The notes under the pieces: model-generated | The model's input: the letters and a program-made list of their open reading frames with translations, nothing else | Databases searched by the model: none | Told to the model about the DNA's origin: nothing | Virus record (IMG/VR): IMGVR_UViG_3300028886_000029 | Span: 1 to 46,006 of that record | DNA length: 46,006 nucleotides | Source of the DNA: a virus | Lineage: Duplodnaviria; Heunggongvirae; Uroviricota; Caudoviricetes | Reading direction: 5' to 3' (one strand) | Shown: one piece after another, positions 4,087 to 17,582 of the stretch | How the letters are laid out: each line of letters opens with the position of its first letter | Numbering within the stretch: position 1 is the stretch's first letter | Made by a program: the position numbers and the translations under genes

Positions 4087-4602
4087 TTAACTGGCGTAAG
4101 TTCCAAAGTAATTTTTAATAAAAACTATTGGTGTACCTTTCTGTCCTGAACCACTAACCAAATCGCAAAGTGACGCAATCAAATCCCTATATTGCCTTGG
4201 TGTGGTACCTTGTGATGTCATGTTTCCTACCAAATTATGGTTATTGTTTTCTTTAACCTCATTCCTAATGGCATCATCAAGTTCAGTACCATGTAACTCT
4301 TTATACTTATCATCGGCAAATGCCTTAATTTTAATCTCATTAGGTGTTGACTCAAATATTTCAGGGTCAGTATAAGCTGGCATTGTAATTGGGTCAGCAA
4401 ATTCATTGATGGAAGTACCTAAAATACCATTAATCATTGGACTATGGAAACAACCATCACCATATACACAAACAAGCACATTTTTTCCTGTAACAGTTTT
4501 AACCTTGTCCTTTATATCTTCACAAACTCTAACACAGTCCCTAATGTTGGGAAACAGTTTAATCTTGTCCTCAGTTGCTTTATTAGAACCTAAAACACCG
4601 TA
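4087..4602 (-). pseudogene. C-terminal fragment of a coenzyme F420-0:L-glutamate ligase-like protein
   Basis: Open frame YGVLGSNKATEDKIKLFP...VYGDG...ADP..PAYT...NLVGNMTSQGTTPR...SLCDLVSGSGQKGTPIVFI resembles the Firmicutes/Bacteroidota F420-ligase-like family. The N-terminal half is absent, and an in-frame TAG at 4612-4614 lies within the TnpB element end. Confidence 0.7.
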
Positions 4603-7216: not shown

Positions 7217-7240
7217 TGTTTGTGGTGTTTAAAAATTTAG

Positions 7241-7312
7241 AGCCTCCTGTCGGAATCGAACCAACATCTACTGATTACAAATCAGTTATAATAACCTTTA
7301 TACTAAGGAGGC
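7241..7312 (-). tRNA. trnT: tRNA-Thr(TGT)
   Basis: Cloverleaf GCCTCCT..AGGAGGC; anticodon arm actga-tttgtaa-tcagt; TTCGATT T-loop. Confidence 0.9.
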
Positions 7313-7357
7313 ATGAAGCCATGATTTATAAGGAAAACCATGGCGAAAAACCATAAC

Positions 7358-7505
7358 CACCGTATAAAGAAACTTATAAAAACCTATAAGTTTCAATTTC
7401 TTGCTTCAACCTATCACTACTTTTTAGTGCCTCATTGCTGAGTCTGTCATCCATAGTTGGATAGTCCACAAGCGTAAATTCGGAAGTACGGCTTCCTATT
7501 ATTCT
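7358..7505 (-). ncRNA. Orphan omega-RNA-like copy of the tnpB1 3' end
   Basis: Aligns by eye with 4596-4753 (shared cctcattgctgagtctgtcatcc, TATACGGTG end) with no tnpB ORF; compensatory change gggag/ctccc to ggaag/cttcc. Confidence 0.75.
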
Positions 7506-7515
7506 TACCCCTTTG

Positions 7516-7605
7516 TGGAACCCATCGTATTAGGGAGTCGAACCCTGCTACTTGCATATTCGAAAACGCGCCCAAGGGGACCTTACTAACCGTTCAGGAT
7601 GTCTC
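7516..7605 (-). other. Atypical tRNA-like element
   Basis: T-arm aggg-TTCGACT-ccct present; acceptor and anticodon arms imperfect. Confidence 0.4.
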
Positions 7606-7650
7606 TTTTGTTAATATATAAATAAATGTAAAAAAAAAAACAAACTTTTT

Positions 7651-7854
7651 TTACTTCTTTTTCTTTTTTTCGTCTTTCAATGCGGTGATAATTATCCAAT
7701 TAAACGGAACCATAACCAAACCTACAATGAAAAAAACTAAAATACCCATTGGATAACCACTGACATATATGCCACATATTCCGGCAATATCTAACAATAA
7801 GATAAACAATGCCCACAATTGTAACTTGTATTTCTCAAAAAAATTTTTAAACAT
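7651..7854 (-). CDS. Small membrane protein
   Basis: Two hydrophobic helices, basic tail. Confidence 0.7.
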   Translation of the reverse strand: MFKNFFEKYKLQLWALFILLLDIAGICGIYVSGYPMGILVFFIVGLVMVPFNWIIITALKDEKKKKK

Positions 7855-8086
7855 TTTCTTCTTTCTTTTTTCTATTATTAAAATATTTTTTTATTTTGCT
7901 AATATACCATTTAATTACAATAACATCAAAATAAATTCCGAAACCTAAGAACGCAATACTTAATGGTAATGACCAAAAAAGACTTACTTTCTCAAGTACG
8001 AATAAATTGATAATCATCATCACAACTAATACATTGAAAAGAATTAAACCTATTGTTCCTATTATTGCCAATGCTTTTTCACCCAT
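7847..8086 (-). CDS. Small membrane protein
   Basis: Two hydrophobic helices; CTATTTAT upstream at 8116-8123. Confidence 0.7.
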   Translation of the reverse strand: MGEKALAIIGTIGLILFNVLVVMMIINLFVLEKVSLFWSLPLSIAFLGFGIYFDVIVIKWYISKIKKYFNNRKKKEENV

Positions 8087-8143
8087 ATTATACTCTAATT
8101 AAACCTTATTTACTAATAAATAGTTCATTTACCTAAAAATTTG

Positions 8144-8219
8144 GGAGTTATAAGAGATTCGAACTCTTTCCTTCAGAACCACAATCTGACATGCTTCGAC
8201 CATTAACACCAATAACTCC
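8144..8219 (-). tRNA. trnH: tRNA-His(GTG)
   Basis: tcaga-ttgtggt-tctga; encoded G-1 opposite C discriminator. Confidence 0.9.
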
Positions 8220-8233
8220 ATGTTAAAAATATT

Positions 8234-8373
8234 CAGAAAACATTACCACAGTTTTAGGACTCCAACCTTATCTTCTAATTTACATTAGATGTTTTTGCAA
8301 TTAAACTATTTGTCCTGTGGATTTGAAATGGCGGACAAAATTTAAAAACATAAAAATGTTGCTGTTAGTTTTC
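8234..8373 (-). ncRNA. ACAGCAA-motif element 1, enclosing a degenerate Tyr(GTA)-like tRNA body
   Basis: gaaaac-ta-ACAGCAA ... gttttc-TG; inner tctaa-tgtaaa-ttaga arm. Confidence 0.45.
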
Positions 8374-8386
8374 TTAATTTTATTTG

Positions 8387-8459
8387 TAGGGCCAACGGTA
8401 TTCGAAACCGTGTGATAGGAATGAAAATCCTATATCCTTGACCACTAGATGATAGCCCC
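8387..8459 (-). tRNA. trnE: tRNA-Glu(TTC)
   Basis: tagga-ttttcat-tccta; full cloverleaf. Confidence 0.9.
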
Positions 8460-8876
8460 ATAAAAAAAATACCTGTTTTGTTAATTTTCTTTGTTTTTGT
8501 TCTAAGAAGTGTACCAAAAAAACTCGCCACATGCCTGTGTTTATCCCTGTACAGGTGAACATACTCTAAAACATCACTCCTTCATGGGTCGAACAATTTT
8601 CTATAAACAACTAATTGTAATTATCCTTTATCTTAACATCATGCCTTCAATTAAGAGAATAATCCTCGATTAATAGTTCAGAAGGTTAAGTTTCCCTCTA
8701 TACCTATGTTGGCTCTTTTAACTGTTCTGCAACATCACAACAATCAGTATTGGTCAAGTATCAGGATTTGCACCAACTTTTTACAACCTTATTATAATAT
8801 ACAAAAATTAACTAGTACTTTTAAAATATTATAATTAGTTCTCCACTTGACTTCGAAGCCTCACAAGTGGTATACT

Positions 8877-8953
8877 TGGTGGAATAGACAGGATTCGAAC
8901 CTGCAAAATGACACCGTGCAAGGGTGTTGCTGTACCATTGAAGCCACTACCCC
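8877..8953 (-). tRNA. trnA: tRNA-Ala(TGC), CCA encoded
   Basis: acacc-cttgcac-ggtgt; ends ACCA. Confidence 0.88.
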
Positions 8954-9019
8954 AAAAATACCGCATTTACGGCAGTGCGGCCAGCCAAAACATACGCTCT
9001 TCGAGTGATGTTAATTTTA

Positions 9020-9128
9020 CAGGAAACATTTAACGTCCATAAGACGGGACGGATTTGAACCGCAAACCTCAAATTTTTGTATCCAAGAACAAAATTCTTA
9101 ATCCATGAAAAACTTGCTGTGTGTTTCC
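9020..9128 (-). ncRNA. ACAGCAA-motif element 2, enclosing anticodon-like and T-arm-like hairpins
   Basis: ggaaac-ac-ACAGCAA ... gtttcc-TG; inner ttttgt-tcttggat-acaaaa and gcgg-ttcaaat-ccgt. Confidence 0.5.
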
Positions 9129-10063
9129 TTAATAAATTTCTTAAATTCTTCTTCAACAAACAAAGGATTATACTTACCCATATCCTTTATGATGTATGGC
9201 TTATAACCCATTTTTATTATCTCTTCAATTTTTATTGAATCTCGTTTTTGAACTTGTTCTATAGAATGCTTTTCTGTAATTTTTTCATAATGCCATTTTC
9301 CGTTCCATAAAATCGCAGTTTTTATGTCTTCAATTATTACATCAGCATCCCAACCGTTAAACATTGGAACATTGTGTTTTACATCCTTAAAATATTTTTC
9401 GCATAGTTCGCAAAAATATTTTTCGTTTTTCGAACGCCTTTTATCTGCTTGAGATTTTGCAGAGTTTTTACCCGCATTTCTTAATTTTTCAATTGTTTCT
9501 TGTGACAAAAACTCTTTTTTATGCTTTTTTATCGTTTCGCTACACTCTTTACTACATACTACTTTTGTGGTACCTGGAAACAGAGTAGAATAATAATACG
9601 TTTTTCCGCAAACTTTGCATGTTCTTTTTTTCCTTTCTCTGTGTTTAACATCTTTTTTTTCTTCAAAATTTACTTGCTTATTTAGTGATTTATAATGTTG
9701 TTTTAAAGACTGCCTTATTTTTTCCTTTGTTTCGTCACTCATTGCATCTCTCGTAACATTATTAAAAGATGCTGCACATGAGTGAGAGCAAAAAAAATGT
9801 TTTGTTTTAGAATCATTATAAACATTTTTCTTGATTTCGAACTCTTTACCGCATTTTTCACAATAAACTTTAATTCTAGTTTTTTTACTTTCATAAAAAC
9901 AATCCATTGAGCAAAACTTACATCTACCACGAAGATTGTTTAGTTCGTGTGTAATAAGATTTTTTTGTACATAAAAAGTTTTTCCGCAGTGCTCACATTT
10001 AAGTGGCAATAAATCACTTGACTTAGATGAATTGTATTCTTCTTGTGTATATAAGGTAGTCAT
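9098..10063 (-). CDS. Putative free-standing homing endonuclease (multiple CxxC motifs + C-terminal PD-(D/E)xK/Vsr-like domain)
   Basis: Repeated CxxC/CSxxC; C-terminal WDADVIIEDIKTAILWNGKWHY; CTATTTAT at 10079-10086; inside the tRNA array. Confidence 0.7.
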   Translation of the reverse strand: MTTLYTQEEYNSSKSSDLLPLKCEHCGKTFYVQKNLITHELNNLRGRCKFCSMDCFYESKKTRIKVYCEKCGKEFEIKKNVYNDSKTKHFFCSHSCAASFNNVTRDAMSDETKEKIRQSLKQHYKSLNKQVNFEEKKDVKHRERKKRTCKVCGKTYYYSTLFPGTTKVVCSKECSETIKKHKKEFLSQETIEKLRNAGKNSAKSQADKRRSKNEKYFCELCEKYFKDVKHNVPMFNGWDADVIIEDIKTAILWNGKWHYEKITEKHSIEQVQKRDSIKIEEIIKMGYKPYIIKDMGKYNPLFVEEEFKKFIKETHSKFFMD

Positions 10064-10198
10064 AAAATTGTTTTTATTATAAATAGTCTTTTGTTGCGAA
10101 AAAAAGACTTGAACCTAAAAATATTTTGTTCTTAGGTTAGTTTGTTTTAATAAACAGGATACCACCACCTACTTGCAATGTGCAATTGTTTTCGGATT

Positions 10199-10270
10199 TG
10201 AGGTGACAATCGGAATCGAACCGACATCTCAGGCTTGGAGTGCCTTGAACTAACCGTTGTGCTCCACCCC
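10199..10270 (-). tRNA. Atypical tRNA (loop actccaa; Gly-TCC or Trp-CCA reading ambiguous)
   Basis: Acceptor GGGGTGG/TCACCTC and T-arm gtcgg-ttcgatt-ccgat; no U33 in register; 2 extra nt before the acceptor 3' strand. Confidence 0.5.
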
Positions 10271-10466
10271 GCAATATTTAAAAATAAACGATTTTAGACT
10301 AGATTCGTGAACCGTTTTTATGCTGAGAGCCATAGAAAATTTGCAACTTCTCTATGTTGTTACTTGAACGTGCGAATCCACAAACACACCGCTACCCAGT
10401 TGAAACCACCTAAAAAGTGTGTACACCACTTTCATCATCAATGATTACCTTTCAAGTATCTCTTTG

Positions 10467-10541
10467 TGGGAATGAAGGAATTCGAATCCCTGACCCTTTG
10501 AATGTAAGTCAAATGCTCTAAACCAACTGAGCTACACTCCC
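10467..10541 (-). tRNA. trnV: tRNA-Val(TAC)
   Basis: tttga-cttacat-tcaaa; canonical D arm. Confidence 0.92.
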
Positions 10542-10818
10542 AAAAATACGCCCATTTATTCCTCCATGTTGTCACAGTATGTTGTGAGGGACTTTTCACT
10601 ATATTAGCCCAATGCGACCTCTTTACGCTACTTCCGCACCTATATTTGGAATTAATGTTGCTTACCTACGCATACCCATCGCAAATTTTAACCACACCCC
10701 AGCCAAATACATTGCTCCAATCTATATTCTTCTTCTAATGTGGTTGACAGGAATAACCCAACAGGACTTCTTTCTATTGAAAATTCAAATTCTGCATACC
10801 TTAATGATAGAAAAATAA

Positions 10819-10877
10819 CAGGAAACATTTTTGTTTGAAAATGACAATTTCAATAAAATAATTTGCTGTATGTTTCC
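10819..10877 (-). ncRNA. ACAGCAA-motif element 3 with an Asp(GTC)-like anticodon stem-loop
   Basis: ggaaac-at-ACAGCAA ... gtttcc-TG; inner ttgaaa-TTGTCAT-tttcaa. Confidence 0.55.
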
Positions 10878-11285
10878 TAAAAAAATATCTAAAAAACTAC
10901 TTGATAGTACAAAAAAGATATTAACGGTTTAGCCACAACCATTTTTGTTTTGGCCAGTCCTCTACCTAACCGTGTAGGTTTTCCTTTCAACATCAAGAAT
11001 GGCTCATTCTATAGTGTGTTGGCTAAGGAAATATGCTAATCCCCAACAACTTCATTTTTCAAAAAACGGATGCATGTCAATCGTATTCCGTTATTCTGCG
11101 TTAACCTCACATGCCAAGGTCATATAGTCCACAACACACCCATATGACTAACTAGTATTTTCATTCTAAAAATTACTTAATAGAATATGAGCAGCCATTA
11201 TTATAATGGAACCAATAAAACAACTATTGAATTTCTGCTATTGTTTAGTTTCTAATTTTTCAACATTGTCAAATAACTTACATTG

Positions 11286-11293
11286 CAAATATA
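11286..11293 (-). promoter_or_regulatory. Bacteroidota sigma70-type -7 element (TATATTTG)
   Basis: Matches the TAnnTTTG consensus; also at 14672-14679, 17051-17058, 26026-26033 and 45549-45556. Confidence 0.65.
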
Positions 11294-11324
11294 TAAATAT
11301 TAATTGACAAAAACAAATTTTTTG

Positions 11325-11951
11325 TACTTCGGCTGCGACTCGAACGCAGGACCAACTGCTTAGCTTACCACTATAACTTTCGTTACCAATATAAGACTAA
11401 AAATGACCTACAGCACAAGAGGATTGCAGTCATTCCGTAACATCCCTTTTATGTTCCTCTTATTTCGGGTCTTTATATTGTTTGTGGTCTGGACTATCCC
11501 TTAACCATATTGAAATCTTGCAAGATTGGATTAGGGTTTGTTCTTACCCCGAATAGCAGGTCGCTTTCCTGCACAGTTTGTTTTAATTTTAAAATCCAAA
11601 TTTCAACTTAGGTTTCTTCCGTCTAGTCTCTACACACTGTCTATTACAAATACTGAAATGTAGCTTAATTGCATATATTTGCCTTCTATGCAATAACGCC
11701 TTTTCATTACATTCCCAATTAACACCTTTTGCAAACGAGGTGAGTATTTGTTTTTAACATTGGTTCGGTATTAGCATATATTAACAGGACTCTTCACCTG
11801 TCCGACTCATATAGAGTGTCTGATTTGATTTTATACTTAGCTTTCACCGAATTTGGAAGTTTCTACATCTAAAATTTCTTTTAGTGCACTCCTAATTAAT
11901 TGATTATCAATTACTTAAAGGCAGTTGCTCTATCCACTGAGCTACCGAAGC
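11325..11951 (-). tRNA. trnR: tRNA-Arg(TCT) split by a group I intron (exons 11951-11918 and 11363-11325)
   Basis: Spliced arm actgc-ctt|ctaa-gcagt; acceptor GCTTCGG/CCGAAGT. Confidence 0.85.
11364..11917 (-). ncRNA. Group I intron (554 nt) after U34 of tRNA-Arg
   Basis: P/Q/R/S-like cores aattcggtgaaag, aataccgaaccaa, gtagagactag, aagggatagtcc; U.G in P1; ends ...GTGGTAAG. Confidence 0.85.
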
Positions 11952-11974
11952 ATAAATAATATTTTTAAAAATTG

Positions 11975-12059
11975 TGCGTCCAATGGGACTCGAACCCATA
12001 ACGCCTTACGGACCCCTCTGATTAAAAGTCAGATGCGCTACCAATTGCGCCATGGACGC
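11975..12059 (-). tRNA. trnK: tRNA-Lys(TTT) with long variable arm
   Basis: tctga-cttttaa-tcaga; 85 nt in total. Confidence 0.85.
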
Positions 12060-12067
12060 TTACACAG

Positions 12068-12895
12068 TTAAATTATTCCATAATCAATAAGCCATCTTTT
12101 CACTGTTGTTGGGCTTACGGAATATTTTCTCGCAAGTCCTGCAAATGTTTTTATTTCTAAGAAATCATTTGCTAATGTTTCTTTTTCTGGTTTGTGTTTT
12201 ACGGTATCAAGTCTTTCTCTGTAACATGTAAGACAATAACCATGAACTGTCCTATATGCTAGTGGTTTACCACAACCTTTACAACAAGTTATTTCCTTAT
12301 TTGTTGCTATGTTTTTTCCACAAAAATTATCGGTCTGAGAATGACAGTTTGGACAGAGTATTTGTATATTGTCAATTGCATTATTTTGTTTATTTCCGTC
12401 AATATGATGCAATTGTAAAACAATTTTTTCACCCATCCACTCCGTAATACCACACCTTTCACATTTTCGCTCTTTTATCCCTTCCCTAAAAAGCCTCTCT
12501 TTAAATGTATAAAGATTTTGTTTATATCCGGAACCGTTCCTTTTTCTATTTGTTAGAGTATTAGTTCTTAGTTTCAAAGATATCTTTTCTTTTGTTTCGG
12601 TACTTAAGACTCTATTTTTATTATTAAAAGAAGCAGCACAAGACGATGAACAAAACTTTTTTTGCCCAGAGATTAATTCCTTACCACATTTAACACAATA
12701 ACGTTTTTTCTTTTCTTTATACCAACCAAAATCAAAACCAATTTCTTCTGCTACCTTATTGATATATCTTATATTTGCAGTATTGCTACAAACACCATAA
12801 TATTCATAAATTTCTTTTTTGGTAGAAAATGACTTGAATAGTTCATATACTTTATGTTTTTTATCATCATTACTTATATCTATAAACATAACCAT
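12068..12895 (-). CDS. HNH homing endonuclease
   Basis: CERC..QLHHIDGNKQNNAIDNIQILCPNCH; ATG at 12895 (the longer ORF-track frame overlaps tRNAs). Confidence 0.88.
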   Translation of the reverse strand: MVMFIDISNDDKKHKVYELFKSFSTKKEIYEYYGVCSNTANIRYINKVAEEIGFDFGWYKEKKKRYCVKCGKELISGQKKFCSSSCAASFNNKNRVLSTETKEKISLKLRTNTLTNRKRNGSGYKQNLYTFKERLFREGIKERKCERCGITEWMGEKIVLQLHHIDGNKQNNAIDNIQILCPNCHSQTDNFCGKNIATNKEITCCKGCGKPLAYRTVHGYCLTCYRERLDTVKHKPEKETLANDFLEIKTFAGLARKYSVSPTTVKRWLIDYGII

Positions 12896-12989
12896 TTTTT
12901 TATATAAATATACAGAAAAATGTGAAAAAATCAAGTTTTGAACTATAAGTTGTTCAAAAAAAAGAAAAATCACCATGCTCCAATATGAG

Positions 12990-13064
12990 CAGTCATAACG
13001 GGGTTCGAACCCGTAAATCTCCACCGTGACAGGGTGGCATGTTAACCAATTACACCATATGACT
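12990..13064 (-). tRNA. trnD: tRNA-Asp(GTC)
   Basis: ccacc-ctgtcac-ggtgg. Confidence 0.9.
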
Positions 13065-13074
13065 ATAAATTTTG

Positions 13075-13147
13075 TCGGGATGATACGACTCGAACGTACG
13101 ACCCCTTGGTCCCAAACCAAGTGTTCTACCAACTGAACTACATCCCG
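13075..13147 (-). tRNA. trnP: tRNA-Pro(TGG)
   Basis: cttgg-tttggga-ccaag; CGGGATG acceptor. Confidence 0.92.
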
Positions 13148-13152
13148 AAAAA

Positions 13153-13325
13153 TAATTAGTTTCTGTTCCATCTCTGCCAATGAATTCAACAAGAAGCCTA
13201 TGGAGTGGCGTTTTATTAGCGCGCCTTTCGATTATTACCACTCAGCAAGTGTAATGTGATTTTTTCCGGATAACCCATTACTCTAATGCCAACTATCACC
13301 CATCACTGGGATGTGAAACTAATTA
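13153..13325 (-). ncRNA. Candidate ~170-nt structured RNA
   Basis: 11-bp terminal helix taattagtttc/gaaactaatta continued by catc/gatg and ccagtga/tcattgg; internal gagtgg/ccactc. Confidence 0.45.
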
Positions 13326-13348
13326 ATTTATAAGTTTTTATCATAAAA

Positions 13349-13385
13349 TTTGCTACATTTTCAAAGGGTTTGAAAATGTAGCAAA
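13349..13385. terminator. 17-bp perfect hairpin (terminator or processing site)
   Basis: tttgctacattttcaaa-ggg-tttgaaaatgtagcaaa. Confidence 0.65.
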
Positions 13386-13400
13386 ATATGTGATAATTTG

Positions 13401-13527
13401 TCGGAAACCAAGGATTTGCACCTTGAACTGTGACACCCAATAATTTTATAACAGAATGTTGCTGTACATTTTTTTTCCAAAAAACGCAAATAAAAAAGTC
13501 ACCGTGTTACTGTTACACTAATTTCCG
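13401..13527 (-). tRNA. trnP: Second tRNA-Pro(TGG) interrupted by a 56-nt insert in the anticodon loop
   Basis: CGGAAAT/GTTTCCG acceptor; gtgac-ttt[56 nt]gggt-gtcac; T-loop tgcaaat. Confidence 0.7.
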
Positions 13528-13592
13528 AATTTTTTTCCGCGGTGAGACTGAGATTCGAACTCAGGGGTCGCTCATCACGACCGGCGGTTTTC

Positions 13593-14314
13593 CTTACCAC
13601 TATAGCTTTCGCTACCAAAACAAGAAACACAATTTATTCGAATGTCCCCACTTAACTGAGGCATAGTATTATCTAACTACGAAAACGTCTCTACAATTAT
13701 ACTCTACGCCAACCTGCATACTCACGATATATCGCTTTCATGTTCTCCGTAGTGTTTCCCCAACGTTTTGTGAGTGTTTGTTTTGTTTGTGGTCTGGACT
13801 CTATCTTAACCTTATTGAAACCTTGCAAGATGTATAAGTTTACCTCAGCACCTTCAAGCTTCGTATAAACGCATCGTGTCAATTCACTTCTTTAATTCTA
13901 GTTCCACTTATACAATTTCAACTTAGGTTCCTCCCATATCGTCTCTACACACTGTCTAAGGCACTGTAGGCTTTACTACACTTATTTTAAAACAACGGCA
14001 ATCTGTTGTTACCTTAACATTGGCTCGGTATTACCATCAGCATTATCTGTTAAGGTTTCACCGAATTAGGGAGGTTCTACATCTAAAATTTCTTTTAGCG
14101 CACTCAAATTACACATTGTTCAAGAGTATGAAATAAAATAGTAAATTATTTCTTTATAGTTAAAACTAATGGGTTAACTCCTAAACCCTCTATCCCATTC
14201 GCAAATGCGTTTGGGACTGCTTTTTTTCATAATATTATAACTGCCATTAACATCAGCGTTAACATATTTGTATTGTTATATATAAATAGTATGAAAAAAA
14301 TTGAAAATATTTTC
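13593..14314 (-). ncRNA. Group I intron (722 nt) after U34 of tRNA-Ser with enlarged P1 loop
   Basis: Same core motifs as the Arg intron; P1 cttgaa/tttgag closes about 200 nt downstream; ends ...GTGGTAAG. Confidence 0.85.
14146..14270 (-). pseudogene. tnpB: tnpB C-terminal remnant (omega-RNA-overlapping region) inside the intron P1 loop
   Basis: KYVNADVNGSYNIMKK[+1 A]AVPNAFANGIEGLGVNPLVLTIKK*, a RuvC-III NADVNG-type TnpB tail; CTATTTAT at 14282-14289. Confidence 0.75.
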
Positions 14315-14475
14315 AAGACCGCTGCATTAGACCACTCTGCCACCTCACCGTAAAATAAAGATTATTCTGAACTCTGTCACCATTAACGATTATTAAGAAA
14401 AGTCTTAATAATATTGTTAAACATCTATTCAATGCTACTGTCAGTTTTTTCTTTATTAAGAAAGTCACCATAGTA

Positions 14476-14582
14476 TGCTGAGAGTCGGATTCGAACCGAC
14501 AGTCATTATCAAAGGATAATGCAGGTTACTCGCCTGAACTGGGTATTACCCCTACGAGTCTTCCAATTCGCACCACCTCAGC
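14476..14582 (-). other. Atypical class II tRNA-like element with an extra hairpin
   Basis: GCTGAGG/TCTCAGC acceptor, canonical T-arm, long variable arm, extra gggt-aat-accc hairpin, non-canonical loop cgagtaa. Confidence 0.5.
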
Positions 14583-14714
14583 CTTCGTGACCATATTTTA
14601 TTTTCAATTTCACATATTCAATAAAATAATTTGTATTTATCAGTATTGTCAAAGAAATATTAATTTCATTGCAAATGTATAAATCTTTTTTTTTACAACA
14701 AAATTAATTTTTAG

Positions 14715-15341
14715 TTGAAGGCAGAGGAATCGAACCTCTATTCTGGGAACCCATACCACTATAGCTTTCACTACCAACTAGCATTCAATTGCAGGATGAT
14801 ATTTACCCACCTCTCATGGTTGGTGAAGGAACATATTGCTATATATTTATCCCGTTTACTGCAATTTACATTGTTTGTGGTCTGGACTATACCTTAACCA
14901 TATTGAAATCTTGCGCAAGTAGGAAGCATCAGTCTCTAAGTACTTTCTTATAAACTCAATCCTTATTGAAATAATATATATTCTTACGGATGTGGAATAT
15001 TACTCTTCTTCCATTTCAACTTAGGTTTTCTCCATCTAGTCTCTACACACTGTCTAAGTTTTACATGCTCCGTTTGCTACACCTTGCACAAAGAATTACA
15101 CTTTGTCCATATGTGGGAACTCGAATCCCCTGCAAAACTATAACATTGGCTCGGTATTAGCATATATCTCATCTGTTATATCCTCTCGGATAATCTCGTG
15201 ATTTACAATGCCCTCTCGGACAAACACACTCTTATATGATTACTTAGCCTTCACCGAATTTGGAGAATTCTACATACAAAATTTCTTTTGAAGCATTCGA
15301 TTTTTTCAAAATCCCATGTCTTACCTTTAGACGAGCCTTCA
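14715..15341 (-). tRNA. trnQ: tRNA-Gln(TTG) split by a group I intron (exons 15341-15308 and 14751-14715)
   Basis: Spliced tggga-tttt|ggt-tccca; TGAAGGC/GCCTTCA acceptor. Confidence 0.82.
14752..15307 (-). ncRNA. Group I intron (556 nt) after U35 of tRNA-Gln
   Basis: Same core motifs; P1 tttga/tcgaa with U35.G; ends ...GTGGTATG. Confidence 0.82.
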
Positions 15342-15413
15342 ATTTATTTCAAAGAACTGTTTCTTTTTATTTCAAAAATCGTGCCAAAATATAAATTTTA
15401 ACATTTTTTTTTG

Positions 15414-15485
15414 CGGGGACGCATGGATTCGAACCAAGATAGACGGATTAACAGTCCGCAGTAATAACCCTTATACGACATCCCC
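15414..15485 (-). tRNA. trnN: tRNA-Asn(GTT)
   Basis: gcgga-ctgttaa-tccgt. Confidence 0.9.
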
Positions 15486-15494
15486 AATTATAAA

Positions 15495-15731
15495 CTACTT
15501 TTCAGTAGTTTCAGTTGTTGCATCATTTACCACATCTTCGTTTTTTGGCATTGTGGCTGCTGTTGTAGGTGCGACAGAGTTCATTTTCTCATATTCCGCT
15601 CTCAACTTTTCAAGCCTCTTTTGTCTTGCCAACATAAGTCTCTTTTTCTCAATAAGACTGTTTCTAACATTTTCATTAGCGTCCCTTCTTGGGGTAAATG
15701 AATTTTTCTTTGTGTGTTTCTTTTTACTCAT
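15495..15731 (-). CDS. Small basic/coiled-coil hypothetical protein
   Basis: 78 aa ORF between tRNAs. Confidence 0.65.
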   Translation of the reverse strand: MSKKKHTKKNSFTPRRDANENVRNSLIEKKRLMLARQKRLEKLRAEYEKMNSVAPTTAATMPKNEDVVNDATTETTEK

Positions 15732-15758
15732 AACAATAAAATTAAAAAATAAAATTTG

Positions 15759-15832
15759 TACCCTCTCTCAGATTCGAACTGAGACTTCATAGATTTTGAA
15801 TCTATTCACTCTGCCAATTGGTGTAAGAGGGT
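15759..15832 (-). tRNA. trnL: tRNA-Leu(CAA) with short variable loop
   Basis: ataga-ttcaaaa-tctat; 74 nt. Confidence 0.8.
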
Positions 15833-15834
15833 AT

Positions 15835-16026
15835 ATTATATTGAGTTACTGGTCAGAAATTACCTACAGTTGAATATGACACCCATCGCCTTGGATAATA
15901 TTGTTGTTTGCGCAAATTCTTTCAATATTATCTGTACACCTATTGAATCCTGATGTATTTTCCTTTTCCCTGTAGCGTACTTCAGAAAATACCGATTCCA
16001 TTCCATATCTCCTCACTCAATATAAT
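15835..16026 (-). ncRNA. Candidate ~190-nt structured RNA
   Basis: 12-bp terminal helix attatattgagt/actcaatataat; boxA-like GTTCTTTGAA just upstream; no ORF. Confidence 0.4.
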
Positions 16027-16097
16027 TTTTCAAAGAACTATTATGTGTTTTACAAATATCATGCCAAAGGCATTAAAAAGACAAACAAATTTTAATA

Positions 16098-16775
16098 TTA
16101 TTTAACATTTTTGCCGTACAATTGACCTCTTTTAAAATATTTTGATTTACCTGTGCGAGTTGGTTCAAGACTTTCTGTTATAATTTTGTCTATATCAATA
16201 GTATCTTCTCTCAAAGCCAAATCATCATATATTTTCTTTACTTGTTCAAAAAAAGGTATTCTAAATTTAAAATGCTTGGATATTTGTGTATAGTAGTTGT
16301 CATCATCGGTAGCATCTACAATTTCATGCTCTTCATGTTGAAGTTTTAACTGTGAGTGCTTGTCATCACCTTCCCAATATTGGTATGAAACTTCTCCATC
16401 GTTTTGCATATCAACAAATATCACACTTTCTTGGTTATATTTGTAACATAGATAAAGTGTATCTTCAATAGTGATATTATATACCATTATAGAATTCTCA
16501 ATACCATCATAGTTACCTTTTACTTTAAAATATTTATAATGTCCAATACTAAGTTGTCTTTCTAATTCATTACTTGCTTGCTGATTATATTCTTTTTCAG
16601 CCTTATTACCCATAGGATTTTCTGCTGAAATAATAGCCATTGTTCTAACCCTACGATTAGTTCCTTGTATTGCTTGTTGTGCTTTTTGTCTGCGTGATGT
16701 TTCCATCATAACATTTTTAACACTTTTCTCTATTATATTTTTTAAATCAGTTTCAGTAAGAACTATTTCAGTCAT
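16098..16775 (-). CDS. Phage protein (DUF3293-like core), paralog of 6440-7216
   Basis: AIISAENP..VKGNYDGIENSIMVYNI..KYNQESVIF. Confidence 0.78.
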   Translation of the reverse strand: MTEIVLTETDLKNIIEKSVKNVMMETSRRQKAQQAIQGTNRRVRTMAIISAENPMGNKAEKEYNQQASNELERQLSIGHYKYFKVKGNYDGIENSIMVYNITIEDTLYLCYKYNQESVIFVDMQNDGEVSYQYWEGDDKHSQLKLQHEEHEIVDATDDDNYYTQISKHFKFRIPFFEQVKKIYDDLALREDTIDIDKIITESLEPTRTGKSKYFKRGQLYGKNVK

Positions 16776-16790
16776 AATTTCTTTTTTTTG

Positions 16791-16875
16791 TGGGAGTGGT
16801 TAGATTCGAACTAACTGTGTGTCATTGTGCTGGATTTACAGTCCAGTGCCCATCCACCATCTGAGCCGCACTCCC
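16791..16875 (-). tRNA. trnY: tRNA-Tyr(GTA)
   Basis: ctgga-ctgtaaa-tccag; long variable arm. Confidence 0.9.
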
Positions 16876-16956
16876 GTAATTAAATTCTTTTTGAATTTAG
16901 AAGTCAACGTATCTCATCTTCCTACGGTTTAAAAATCCGAAAAACATACGTGGTTG

Positions 16957-17039
16957 TGGGCACTGAGAGACTTGAACTCTCACGTCATTAAGACACATGC
17001 TCCTTAGGCATGCCTGTCTACCAATTCCAGCAAGCACCC
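16957..17039 (-). tRNA. trnL: tRNA-Leu(AAG)
   Basis: catgc-ctAAGga-gcatg; class II Leu body. Confidence 0.88.
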
Positions 17040-17249
17040 AAATTGTGTTGCAAATATATTACTATTTTTTTAAAAACCCAAATTTTTATGTACAAAAATA
17101 ATATTTTTCACATCAAAATCATCTGTGTAATTCAACACTTCTTTCAAAAATGTTTCCATTGTATAACCACTATGGTTTTTAAATTCTTCTTCCAACTGTT
17201 TATGATTTTCCAAAATATTATCCATAATCATTAAATTTTATGTTTTTTG

Positions 17250-17323
17250 TGGGCAAGGTAGAACTCGAATCTACGGTCTCTTGAATATCAGTCAAGTGCT
17301 TTAACCAACTAAGCTACTCGCCC
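17250..17323 (-). tRNA. trnI: tRNA-Ile(GAT)
   Basis: cttga-ctgatat-tcaag. Confidence 0.92.
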
Positions 17324-17336
17324 TTATTTTATTTTG

Positions 17337-17419
17337 TGGGCACTGAGAGACTTGAACTCTCACATCACGAAGGATACATGCTCCTAAGGCATGCGTGTCT
17401 ACCGTTCCACCAAGTACCC
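17337..17419 (-). tRNA. trnL: tRNA-Leu(TAG)
   Basis: catgc-ctTAGga-gcatg; paralog of 16957-17039. Confidence 0.92.
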
Positions 17420-17425
17420 ATTTTG

Positions 17426-17499
17426 AGTTTCAGGTGAGATTCGAACTCACGGATGTCAGTTTTGCAGACTGATGTGTTAAACCACTTCACCACTGAAAC
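17426..17499 (-). tRNA. trnC: tRNA-Cys(GCA)
   Basis: tcagt-ctgcaaa-actga. Confidence 0.92.
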
Positions 17500-17507
17500 A
17501 AATTTTG

Positions 17508-17582
17508 CAGAAGCGGAAAGATTCGAACTCTCATCAGGCAACTTTGGAGGATGCTATGCTTAACCATTTACACCACGCTTCC
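17508..17582 (-). tRNA. trnW: tRNA-Trp(CCA)
   Basis: gcatc-ctccaaa-gttgc; GGAAGCG/CGCTTCT acceptor. Confidence 0.85.

Follow-up and report, generated by a model that had tools for sequence, protein, structure and literature searches.

Locus and tRNA array

The window (the whole stretch of DNA analyzed here, 46,006 nt) corresponds to the 46 kb at the start of a virus record of 363,317 bp with a G+C content of ~33%. Sequencing runs with matching DNA carry the label bovine gut, and the source is a rumen phage. Along with TnpB-type, HNH and GIY-YIG genes, a DHFR–thymidylate synthase fusion, ClpP and DnaJ, the window encodes a minus-strand tRNA array that spans positions 7240–17582. ARAGORN reports 16 tRNAs in the window in its default mode and, when introns are allowed, makes 23 tRNA calls genome-wide.

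According to ARAGORN, the genes for tRNA-Arg(UCU), tRNA-Ser(UGA) and tRNA-Gln(UUG) contain introns of 554, 722 and 556 nt, respectively, which have long sequence blocks in common. A 584-nt RNA contig, found in libraries of two studies, forms a circle that coincides exactly with the 554-nt Arg intron (11364–11917), and RNA depth is in the hundreds over the large-intron regions vs 5–15 over the flanks. The exact circle and the depth of these regions indicate that large introns of the Arg/Ser/Gln type are excised in nature; among the RNA contig matches listed, the neighboring large introns appear as excised circles only, and no exon junctions are present.

The array also includes a canonical, uninterrupted tRNA-Pro(UGG) at 13075–13147 (minus strand; 68.2 bits with Rfam, ARAGORN score 120.5). 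A 196-nt element at 13148–13343 folds no better than its shuffled versions (z = −1.27), and a terminator-like, perfect 17-bp hairpin followed by a T run occupies 13349–13385 (minus strand), 15 nt downstream of the gene that is the subject of this work.

An interrupted tRNA-Pro gene

With introns allowed, ARAGORN calls a second tRNA-Pro(tgg) at c[13400,13527], with a 56-nt intron and a score of 103.2; position 13527 is the 5′ end and 13401 is A73. The gene (hereafter Pro2; 13401–13527, minus strand) is supported by a full-length alignment with homologues from five other phages (G002–G006, see below), and its coordinates and insert length match those proposed by the first-pass annotation, as does the distance to the uninterrupted tRNA-Pro (253 nt, given there as about 250). 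It starts 11 nt downstream of a tRNA-Ser gene, on the sense strand of the array. Neither ARAGORN in default mode nor Rfam at its gathering thresholds reports anything at 13401–13527, and the Rfam tRNA model (RF00005) gives no match there even at E ≤ 10, so that Pro2 falls short of the 29 bits with the tRNA covariance model that define membership of RF00005.

In the ARAGORN structure, the 5′ part of the gene (13496–13527, minus strand) provides the 5′ strand of the acceptor stem, the D-arm, the 5′ strand of the anticodon stem and U32. The insert follows at loop positions 32/33 (13440–13495, minus strand; its border, based on ARAGORN and on a covariance model match at 13448–13494, is defined to ±1 nt), and the 3′ part (13401–13439, minus strand) provides U33, the anticodon UGG, G37 and U38, the 3′ strand of the anticodon stem, a 4-nt variable loop, the T-arm, the 3′ strand of the acceptor stem and A73. 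The insert begins with UUUU and ends with U (T in the DNA), and the anticodon stem is contiguous rather than split. Within the insert, a hairpin of eight standard pairs, CGUUUUUU / GGAA / AAAAAAUG, occupies 13467–13486 (minus strand); it is defined by the covariance model alignment and the same hairpin is found in the RNAfold centroid. One base past the hairpin comes the motif ACAGCAAC (13458–13465, minus strand, placed by the same alignment), which includes ACAGCAA at 13459–13465, and then an A/U-rich tail, AUUCUGUUAUAAAAUUAU (13440–13457, minus strand; ARAGORN and covariance model). The string aatgt-ACAGCA-acatt-ctg, to which the first-pass annotation had drawn attention, is present, and its ACAGCAA portion proved to be the meaningful part of the insert. 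The same annotation was right that the insert is not a group I intron: it has 56 nt, lacks a terminal G and has no Rfam match.

The window as a whole shows no enrichment of the heptamer ACAGCAA (8 copies found vs 6.4 expected; 28 of 100 shuffles reach 8). Of the eight copies, five are in the tRNA array on its sense strand, a distribution that was spotted post hoc.

The claim that all arms of the tRNA are intact holds for the stems, but not for the elbow. The acceptor, D, anticodon (GUGAC/GUCAC) and T stems, of 7, 4, 5 and 5 bp, respectively, are all paired according to ARAGORN. Once the insert is removed, what remains is a four-armed cloverleaf with the 7-nt loop UUUGGGU, which has U33 and a purine at position 37, as in canonical tRNAs. 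Bacterial tRNA-Pro is identified through C1–G72, A73 and G35 G36; Pro2, with its acceptor CGGAAAU...GUUUCCG-A and the anticodon UGG, possesses the C1–G72 pair, A73 and thus the whole tRNA-Pro identity set. The D-loop (AACAGUA), however, lacks GG and the T-loop (UGCAAAU) has G at position 55, so that the canonical G18 G19/T54 U55 C56 elbow is absent. At least one further interrupted tRNA of a phage (L039) has the T-loop UGCAAAU, too.

The ARAGORN score of Pro2 is the lowest among the 23 genome calls. By itself it is marginal, because it barely tops the best (102.9) of three matches found in ten Markov-shuffled genomes (3.63 Mb in total). Other observations raise the gene above chance: it lies on the sense strand of the array, has homologues in five phages and carries an insert that matches an independently built covariance model.

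The insert matches a hairpin–ACAGCAAY module of other phage tRNAs

The covariance model, R1 (47 positions, 8 pairs), is based on 21 inserts taken from phage tRNAs other than Pro2. When the 46-kb window was searched on both strands with filters off, the top match was at 13448–13494 on the minus strand (29.2 bits, E ~2e-5), that is, on the Pro2 insert; the runner-up scored 16.5 bits. The match is full length, with 8/8 hairpin pairs standard and ACAGCAAC in register. In a search of the whole 363-kb genome the Pro2 insert again ranked first, followed by the insert of a tRNA-Lys(UUU) gene. R1 gave 20 matches at E ≤ 0.01, distributed over 8 of 10 related records, and among the 11 retrieved matches that had not been used for training, all but the two weakest (9) are located within a tRNA gene and 5′ of its anticodon.

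The hairpin shows covariation. In 38 R1 matches (33 distinct), each of the eight pairs varies on both sides, and the covariation score of 0.617, obtained on an alignment that was fitted to R1 and therefore favors the structure, compares with 0.226 in shuffles (0 of 500 reach 0.617) and with at most 0.239 in slid controls. The invariance of CAGCAA in the 21 training inserts, on the other hand, holds by construction, as the patterns used to retrieve them forced CAGCAA. Several of our retrieval patterns had this requirement, and the evidence independent of it comes only from an unbiased Lys pattern and from the model matches.

The unbiased pattern (a D-arm, 35–65 nt of any sequence, the loop CUUUUAA and a T-arm) returned 35 loci with 24 distinct sequences, of which 5 are tandem tRNAs and 19 carry an insert. 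CAGCAA follows a hairpin in 14 of these 19 inserts, the remaining 5 being inserts of other kinds. With CAGCAA forced, a pattern made of a Lys-type D-arm, CAGCAA and the loop CUUUUAA returned 37 loci from viral contigs. The element that emerges is a module (47 nt in Pro2) composed of a short leader, a 6–10-bp hairpin (8 bp in Pro2) that varies in sequence but stays paired, ACAGCAAY directly after it and an A/U-rich tail. Pro2 very probably belongs to this family.

Relative to the anticodon, the module is always found 5′. Its site in most tRNAs is within the 5′ strand of the anticodon stem, following position 28 or 29. Of 34 distinct sequences examined, 22 have this strand split after 2–3 nt into pieces that both show exact complementarity to the 3′ strand. 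UA opens the insert in 20 of the 22 split-stem Lys genes, which is not the case in Pro2. In a few tRNA-Pro(UGG) genes, Pro2 among them, the module occupies a rarer position just past the 5′ strand, at 31/32 or 32/33. We read L146 and L142 as tRNA-Pro genes of this type, with normal elbows and the module right after an unbroken 5′ stem strand as in Pro2; for the insert, ARAGORN gives position 31/32 in L146 and another location in L142. Manual parsing gave the same arrangement, again with normal elbows, for the tRNA-Pro of L033.

The module is also found within tRNAs with the anticodons UUG (Gln), CAU, GCG and UCA. A Pro-directed pattern yielded 47 loci (38 distinct): 23 of the distinct sequences have an interrupted tRNA, as called by ARAGORN, that spans the motif, 15 have no such call, and several of the latter look D-arm-less, with ACAGCAA directly after an acceptor-like strand. 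Bacterial and archaeal genome records returned 35 loci with the Lys pattern, 27 of which look like chance matches; the 8 true members are Firmicutes loci, from records titled Lachnospiraceae, Clostridiaceae, Hungatella, Wujia or 'Bacterium C-53', one of them a named isolate. Since the module recurs at the same place in many phage tRNAs, it appears to be an undescribed type of tRNA intervening sequence, rather than random damage.

The layout of the module resembles that of Cas6-processed CRISPR repeats, in which a hairpin is followed by an 8-nt handle, and one could imagine that the module mimics such a repeat and acts as an RNA anti-CRISPR on a tRNA scaffold. Among 65 loci analyzed there are indeed at least four CRISPR-like arrays whose repeats end in ACAGCAAC. 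The sources of these four arrays, however, namely a Halobacteria MAG, a Thaumarchaeota MAG, a Sphingomonas isolate and one other record, are not likely hosts, and the repeats have no comparable hairpin; moreover, the available text of the paper on RNA anti-CRISPRs (PMC10651486) does not contain the term 'tRNA'. We consider mimicry of this kind very unlikely.

Homologues of Pro2 in related phages

Full-length homologues of Pro2, complete with the module, are present in five related ~360-kb phages (G002–G006). R1 led to those in G002, G003, G005 and G006, and BLAST to the one in G004. In searches with Pro2 itself, at the BLAST level, nine related records gave one partial match (G004) within G002–G006 and none in G007–G010; an exact-match scan of viral contigs with the 3′ half of the gene found nothing, and a 20-mer of the T-arm matched one unrelated locus only. 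In the protein-anchored search, the closest relative, G001, turned out to be without the whole segment 11999–14013, and the more distant relatives had no tRNAs nearby.

The six sequences (Pro2 plus G002–G006) align with a mean column identity of 81%. They have in common the acceptor strand CGG(G/A)AAU, the C1–G72 pair (except that the G002 homologue has A in place of G72), A73, a GUGU D stem and a similar T stem, and the homologues carry CACAGCAAC in the module and a GGG-containing loop. A hairpin and a T run follow each of the G002–G006 genes. In these five genes the module splits the anticodon stem at 29/30 and the elbow loops are normal (GG and UUCGA), unlike in Pro2. The anticodon differs as well, being AGG in four homologues (loop AUAGGGA) and GCG in G004 (loop CUGCGGA), as compared with UGG in Pro2. 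Uninterrupted copies with the same anticodon coexist with the interrupted ones in G000, G002 and G004, and an uninterrupted tRNA-Lys(UUU) is also found in G003.

Pro2 is thus a divergent member of a tRNA lineage with a C1–G72/A73 Pro-type acceptor, a GUGU D-stem and a conserved module. Because its full-length homologues carry the module, Pro2 was inherited with it and is not a fresh insertion. The relatives keep the module, and do not display the random decay at this site that the first-pass annotation had named as a refuting observation.

The same observations bear on the idea that the motif is a mobile unit. The near-coincidence of the Pro2 score (103.2) with the shuffle maximum (102.9) and the occurrence of TnpB elements in the genome could be taken to mean that Pro2 is a chance ARAGORN call in an AT-rich spacer, or else a recent small mobile element or transposon remnant. 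But the homologues from the five phages align over the whole length, at a homologous site; the module hairpin covaries; R1 has no match at the ends of tnpB genes; and the 363-kb genome holds no second copy of the insert (blastn-short returned the insert itself and chance 11–19-mers only). An origin by chance or by recent mobility is therefore highly improbable, and the mobile-unit proposal is not supported. A remnant of an IS200/IS605/IS607 (TnpB) element in particular was rejected, given that blastn-short found no likeness between the insert and the element ends in the genome.

Decay of Pro2 alone deserves more attention. The gene might be a dying spare, from a lineage once functional with the module, that is now a pseudogene kept by linkage. 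The loss of the D-loop GG and of U55, the lowest ARAGORN score in the genome and the lack of an Rfam match would all suit a pseudogene, and so would the canonical tRNA-Pro(UGG) only 253 nt away and the absence of segment 11999–14013 from the closest relative. Yet pairing is maintained in all four stems, the 5-bp anticodon stem being perfect and the acceptor stem having 7 bp with C1–G72, and the module is intact, with 8/8 hairpin pairs standard. A population variant seen in a DNA run shows 14 differences over 1366 nt but none within Pro2, though chance alone would put no more than 1.3 there; in the same variant, eight changes fall within the downstream terminator-like hairpin, whose fold is kept. 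The recurrence of the T-loop UGCAAAU in L039 also counts against decay, and overall we regard a dying gene as an unlikely explanation.

A second interrupted gene in the same genome

The second-best R1 match genome-wide (359245–359288, 21.5 bits) falls on the 41-nt insert of a tRNA-Lys(ttt) gene (Lys2), called by ARAGORN with introns allowed at c[359200,359314] on the minus strand. The Rfam tRNA model scores this gene at 47.4 bits, through a local alignment that skips the anticodon arm. The Pro2 and Lys2 inserts are alike in having a U-rich/A-rich hairpin followed by (A/G)CAGCAA. Neither Lys2 nor the wider module family had been noticed in the first-pass annotation.

The syntenic Lys gene of G001 keeps the insert, with ACAGCAAU and the loop CUUUUAA retained, although the aligned surrounding DNA is 68% identical. 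Between the two genes there are compensatory changes in the acceptor stem (ACCAAGA/UCUUGGU vs AACUGUG/CACAGUU), in the T stem and in the hairpin of the insert. These changes, together with the retained motif and loop, argue that the Lys insert is not a product of decay.

RNA evidence and candidate machinery

In RNA run X3, one contig (13162–13619) crosses Pro2 in unspliced form at a depth of 15, no higher than that of the flanks, while run X13 has no cover over 13405–13551. No contig joints at the Pro2 insert occur among the 15 of 51 listed, and no spliced form of Pro2 was seen in the RNA contigs, among which a mature tRNA of 72 nt would seldom be represented.

The search for processing enzymes advised by the first-pass annotation gave a mixed outcome. 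The archaeal-type splicing endonuclease (PF01974) was found in 0 of 11 phage records, with the positive control detected in four archaea, and RtcB likewise in 0 of 11, with the control detected in Bacteroides thetaiotaomicron; given the latter, a sealing activity supplied by the host is conceivable. An Rnl-family ligase domain (PF09414), on the other hand, is present in 10 of the 11 records, the hit in this genome (19.3 bits) being below the family cut-off. None of the known small ribozymes in Rfam matches the Pro2 insert. A crude test for stop-codon recoding gave no sign of it in G000 or G004.

Two further candidates for the nature of the module were considered and rejected. A retron-like RNA was dismissed because reverse transcriptase (PF00078) occurs in 0 of the 11 records, and a Y-RNA-like partner of Ro60 because the Ro60-type TROVE protein (PF05731) occurs in 0 of the 11 phage records, with its control detected in Bacteroides thetaiotaomicron.

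The module might never be removed. Pro2 and its kin would then give rise to stable, five-armed, tRNA-shaped RNAs that do not decode and that act as decoys or traps for host tRNA-cutting defenses, or as scaffolds presenting the hairpin and ACAGCAAY. This reading accommodates the unspliced RNA contigs and the failure to find PF01974 or RtcB in the 11 phage records, and it would explain why interrupted copies persist beside uninterrupted ones of the same anticodon (G000, G002, G004), why the anticodon drifts among homologues that retain the module and the other arms (acceptor, D and T), and why in Pro2 the module outscores the tRNA body (29.2 bits with R1 vs no Rfam tRNA match). The D-arm-less forms, with ACAGCAA straight after the acceptor-like strand, point the same way. 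It accounts less well for the anticodon loops, which remain canonical, being 7 nt long with U33 and with a purine at position 37, and there is no known partner protein, TROVE being absent from all 11 phage records. The exact complementarity of the split stems in 22 distinct genes is what rejoining would demand, though a three-way junction needs the same pairing. In our judgment permanent retention is possible but somewhat unlikely. A non-decoding five-armed look-alike is nonetheless a close rival to removal of the module; a decaying copy is a lesser rival, for Pro2. Of the readings offered at first, both a protein-spliced intron and a regulated or decoy tRNA remain live.

Comparison with known systems

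Neither a hairpin–ACAGCAA module nor phage tRNAs with inserts in the 5′ strand of their anticodon stem are described in the full-text literature that we searched. For the comparisons below we refer to the available parts of the papers cited. Small 'enigmatic' tRNA introns have been described in Lak megaphages (Devoto et al. 2019, PMC6784885), and a 2026 survey deals with intronic sequences in the tRNAs of 262 alternative-code jumbo phage genomes (PMC13037316). The module resembles the Lak introns (PMC6784885) in that both are small, non-group-I inserts from very large gut phages, conserved between genomes and with a removal mechanism that is not known. The Lak introns, however, are 23–141 nt long and are predicted to lie mostly after the anticodon, with starts at 37–41 (Table S6), whereas the module described here is 5′ of the anticodon. 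A text search of the Lak supplementary file 3 (Table S6; PMC6784885) found no CAGCAA, and in their available parts the Lak and jumbo-phage papers (PMC6784885, PMC13037316) define no shared motif, hairpin or fixed 5′ site. As far as its accessible text goes, a preprint on recoding (10.1101/2021.08.26.457843) mentions group I and mobile introns as the only kinds.

Like group I introns (PMC3984707), the module interrupts the anticodon arm of a bacterial-type tRNA, but the 56 nt of Pro2 are too few for a P3–P9 core and the terminal G is absent. Archaeal bulge–helix–bulge introns (PMC4090602), which are protein-spliced, also occur at varied positions that include the anticodon stem; here, though, the hosts are bacteria and PF01974 is found in 0 of 11 phage records. 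The bulge–helix–bulge geometry, which calls for 3-nt bulges on opposite strands, two in number and separated by 4 bp, would not fit either, as both junctions lie on one strand of the anticodon stem.

Theta (minimal HDV-like) ribozymes (PMC10879173) are another set of small structured RNAs from gut phages; they are linked to the maturation of tRNAs, whose availability they have been proposed to time. They differ in abutting the tRNA at its 3′ end and cleaving at their own G1, while the module lies within the anticodon arm and usually starts with UA. Finally, phage tRNAs that counter anticodon nucleases (PMC10264068, PMC11464382, PMC11555353) are similar in being extra copies, for example of Lys(UUU), kept together with RNA repair genes. 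Their means of escape are point changes within the anticodon loop, and the accessible portions of the three papers describe none with an inserted hairpin.

Proposed explanation

The reading that we favor, with a probability of roughly 0.45, is that the insert is an inherited RNA module read by a putative protein, and that it is most likely removed so as to release a spare tRNA under phage control. The hairpin and ACAGCAAY would constitute a signal, at the RNA level, for a putative dedicated protein, which would remove the module; the tRNA halves could then be sealed by a phage Rnl-type ligase or by the RtcB of the host. In this way, an extra tRNA copy would mature only under phage control, providing a timed or reserve supply, or staying hidden from host anticodon nucleases until needed.

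We think removal the most likely fate of the module because a perfect anticodon stem and its loop are kept and because an uninterrupted copy with the same anticodon usually adjoins. That removal takes place by splicing is a guess, to which we hold tentatively. Counted against removal are the lack of a spliced form, of a candidate nuclease and of known machinery, as well as the weak tRNA body of Pro2 and its insert, which lacks the UA start and occupies the rarer position. The variation of the anticodon among the Pro2 homologues is odd for a conserved decoder, and the redundancy of the interrupted genes with uninterrupted isoacceptors would suit a non-decoding role just as well. Given the loss of the D-loop GG and of U55, Pro2 itself may be drifting towards such a role.

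A more specific version of removal, which we find rather doubtful, is that the modules are substrates of a phage pathway for non-group-I tRNA splicing or maturation, in which a putative nuclease would read the hairpin and the motif and cut 5′ of the anticodon, mostly inside the stem, and an Rnl-type ligase or host RtcB would reseal the product. If this were true, phages could gate or shield selected tRNAs, including suppressor tRNAs.

Implications

To our knowledge, tRNA introns in bacteria and phages are thought to be removed by self-splicing only. 'Enigmatic' tRNA inserts of huge phages have been reported before, in the available parts of those reports without a shared signature or mechanism. 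The family described here does have a signature, consisting of a covarying hairpin, ACAGCAAY and a fixed side of the anticodon, and it extends over several tRNA types, dozens of viral contigs and Firmicutes assemblies. On the practical side, tRNA genes that bear the module are missed by standard tRNA finders, which matters for annotation.

The module would represent either protein-dependent tRNA splicing in the bacterial world or a phage class of five-armed tRNA look-alikes. Either answer would have consequences for our understanding of translational control by phages, of stop-codon recoding and of the evasion of tRNA-cutting defenses.

Module-Type Inserts in Other Phage tRNAs

Besides Pro2, the tRNA-Pro(UGG)-type gene with the hairpin insert, we found a second interrupted tRNA in G000, the 363,317-bp rumen phage genome. 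This is a tRNA-Lys(UUU) on the minus strand (G000 359200-359314, corresponding to positions 4202-4315 of locus L011), which scored 47.4 bits with the Rfam tRNA model. It carries a module-type insert of 41 nt, hairpin-GCAGCAAU, which interrupts the anticodon stem behind position 29. A homologue, also with an insert, occupies the syntenic place in the closely related phage G001.

The module was also present in a UCA-anticodon (UGA-reading) tRNA of one viral contig, L073. In the related phage G004, ARAGORN marginally called (100.4) a putative UCA-anticodon tRNA with a 41-nt insert (301692-301803); frame lengths in G004, examined in a crude test, did not point to recoding. The related phage G002 has a CUA-anticodon tRNA (about 96039-96112) that is not interrupted. 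On an 876-nt viral contig, L033, a tRNA array contains several neighbouring genes that each have the module, and R1, the covariance model of the module, gave five to six matches there, all on one strand.

Some viral contigs (L122-L125, L138, L140, L141 and L148) bear tRNA-Pro-like genes in which the D-arm is seemingly absent. In these, an acceptor-like 5' strand leads directly into ACAGCAA, which a short linker connects to the anticodon arm, with the T-arm coming next; promoter-like AT-rich boxes lie upstream of some of these genes.

Large Introns and Variation of the tRNA Array

The 554-nt intron of tRNA-Arg(UCU) (window 11364-11917) was recovered as an exactly closed circle in RNA libraries from two studies, in 584-nt contigs at a depth of about 250-290. 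Because these RNA contigs close exactly over the intron, the data suggest that it forms full-length circles. None of the three large introns (tRNA-Arg, -Ser and -Gln) had a group I match in Rfam at gathering thresholds, and those of tRNA-Ser and tRNA-Gln had none even at E<=10. Far away from the main array, a plus-strand tRNA-Leu(UAA) with an encoded CCA end (G000 335312-335627) contains a 228-nt intron, for which Rfam returned no group I match at E<=1.

When window 11999-14013 was compared with positions 11950-12460 of the close relative L001, the latter proved to lack tRNA-Lys, the HNH gene, tRNA-Asp, tRNA-Pro, Pro2 and the 3' exon of tRNA-Ser. There, the 5' exon of tRNA-Ser, together with its intron, is joined to the 3' half of another tRNA, an arrangement that resembles the outcome of recombination between two homologous introns. 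Furthermore, tRNA-Gln(UUG) is intronless in L001, whereas it has a 556-nt intron in the window.

An 86-nt tRNA-Lys(UUU) on the minus strand (window 11974-12059; ARAGORN 122.5) has a long variable arm. An odd, 107-nt tRNA-like gene on the same strand (window 14476-14582), with a good acceptor and T-arm, was called 'Thr(agt), 18-nt intron' by ARAGORN and tRNA-Sec, at 20 bits, by Rfam; its L001 counterpart has an internal deletion.

Between a terminator-like hairpin and tRNA-Pro lies a 196-nt stretch (window 13148-13343) that reached a depth of about 527 in the RNA run X13. It occurs there, with 5 differences, on a contig in which the flanking sequence is unrelated to the G000 phage. The stretch had no Rfam match and a fold z-score of only -1.27; it may represent an abundant, portable small RNA.

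A Possible Role of the Motif outside Anticodon Arms

Two minus-strand copies of the arrangement AGGAAACAY-ACAGCAA ... AUGUUUCCU occur in the window (10811-10893 and 9024-9130). Each forms a 9-nt inverted repeat with the ACAGCAA motif directly after the 5' arm, and a T-arm-like piece lies within the second copy. The ACAGCAA motif may also function outside anticodon arms.
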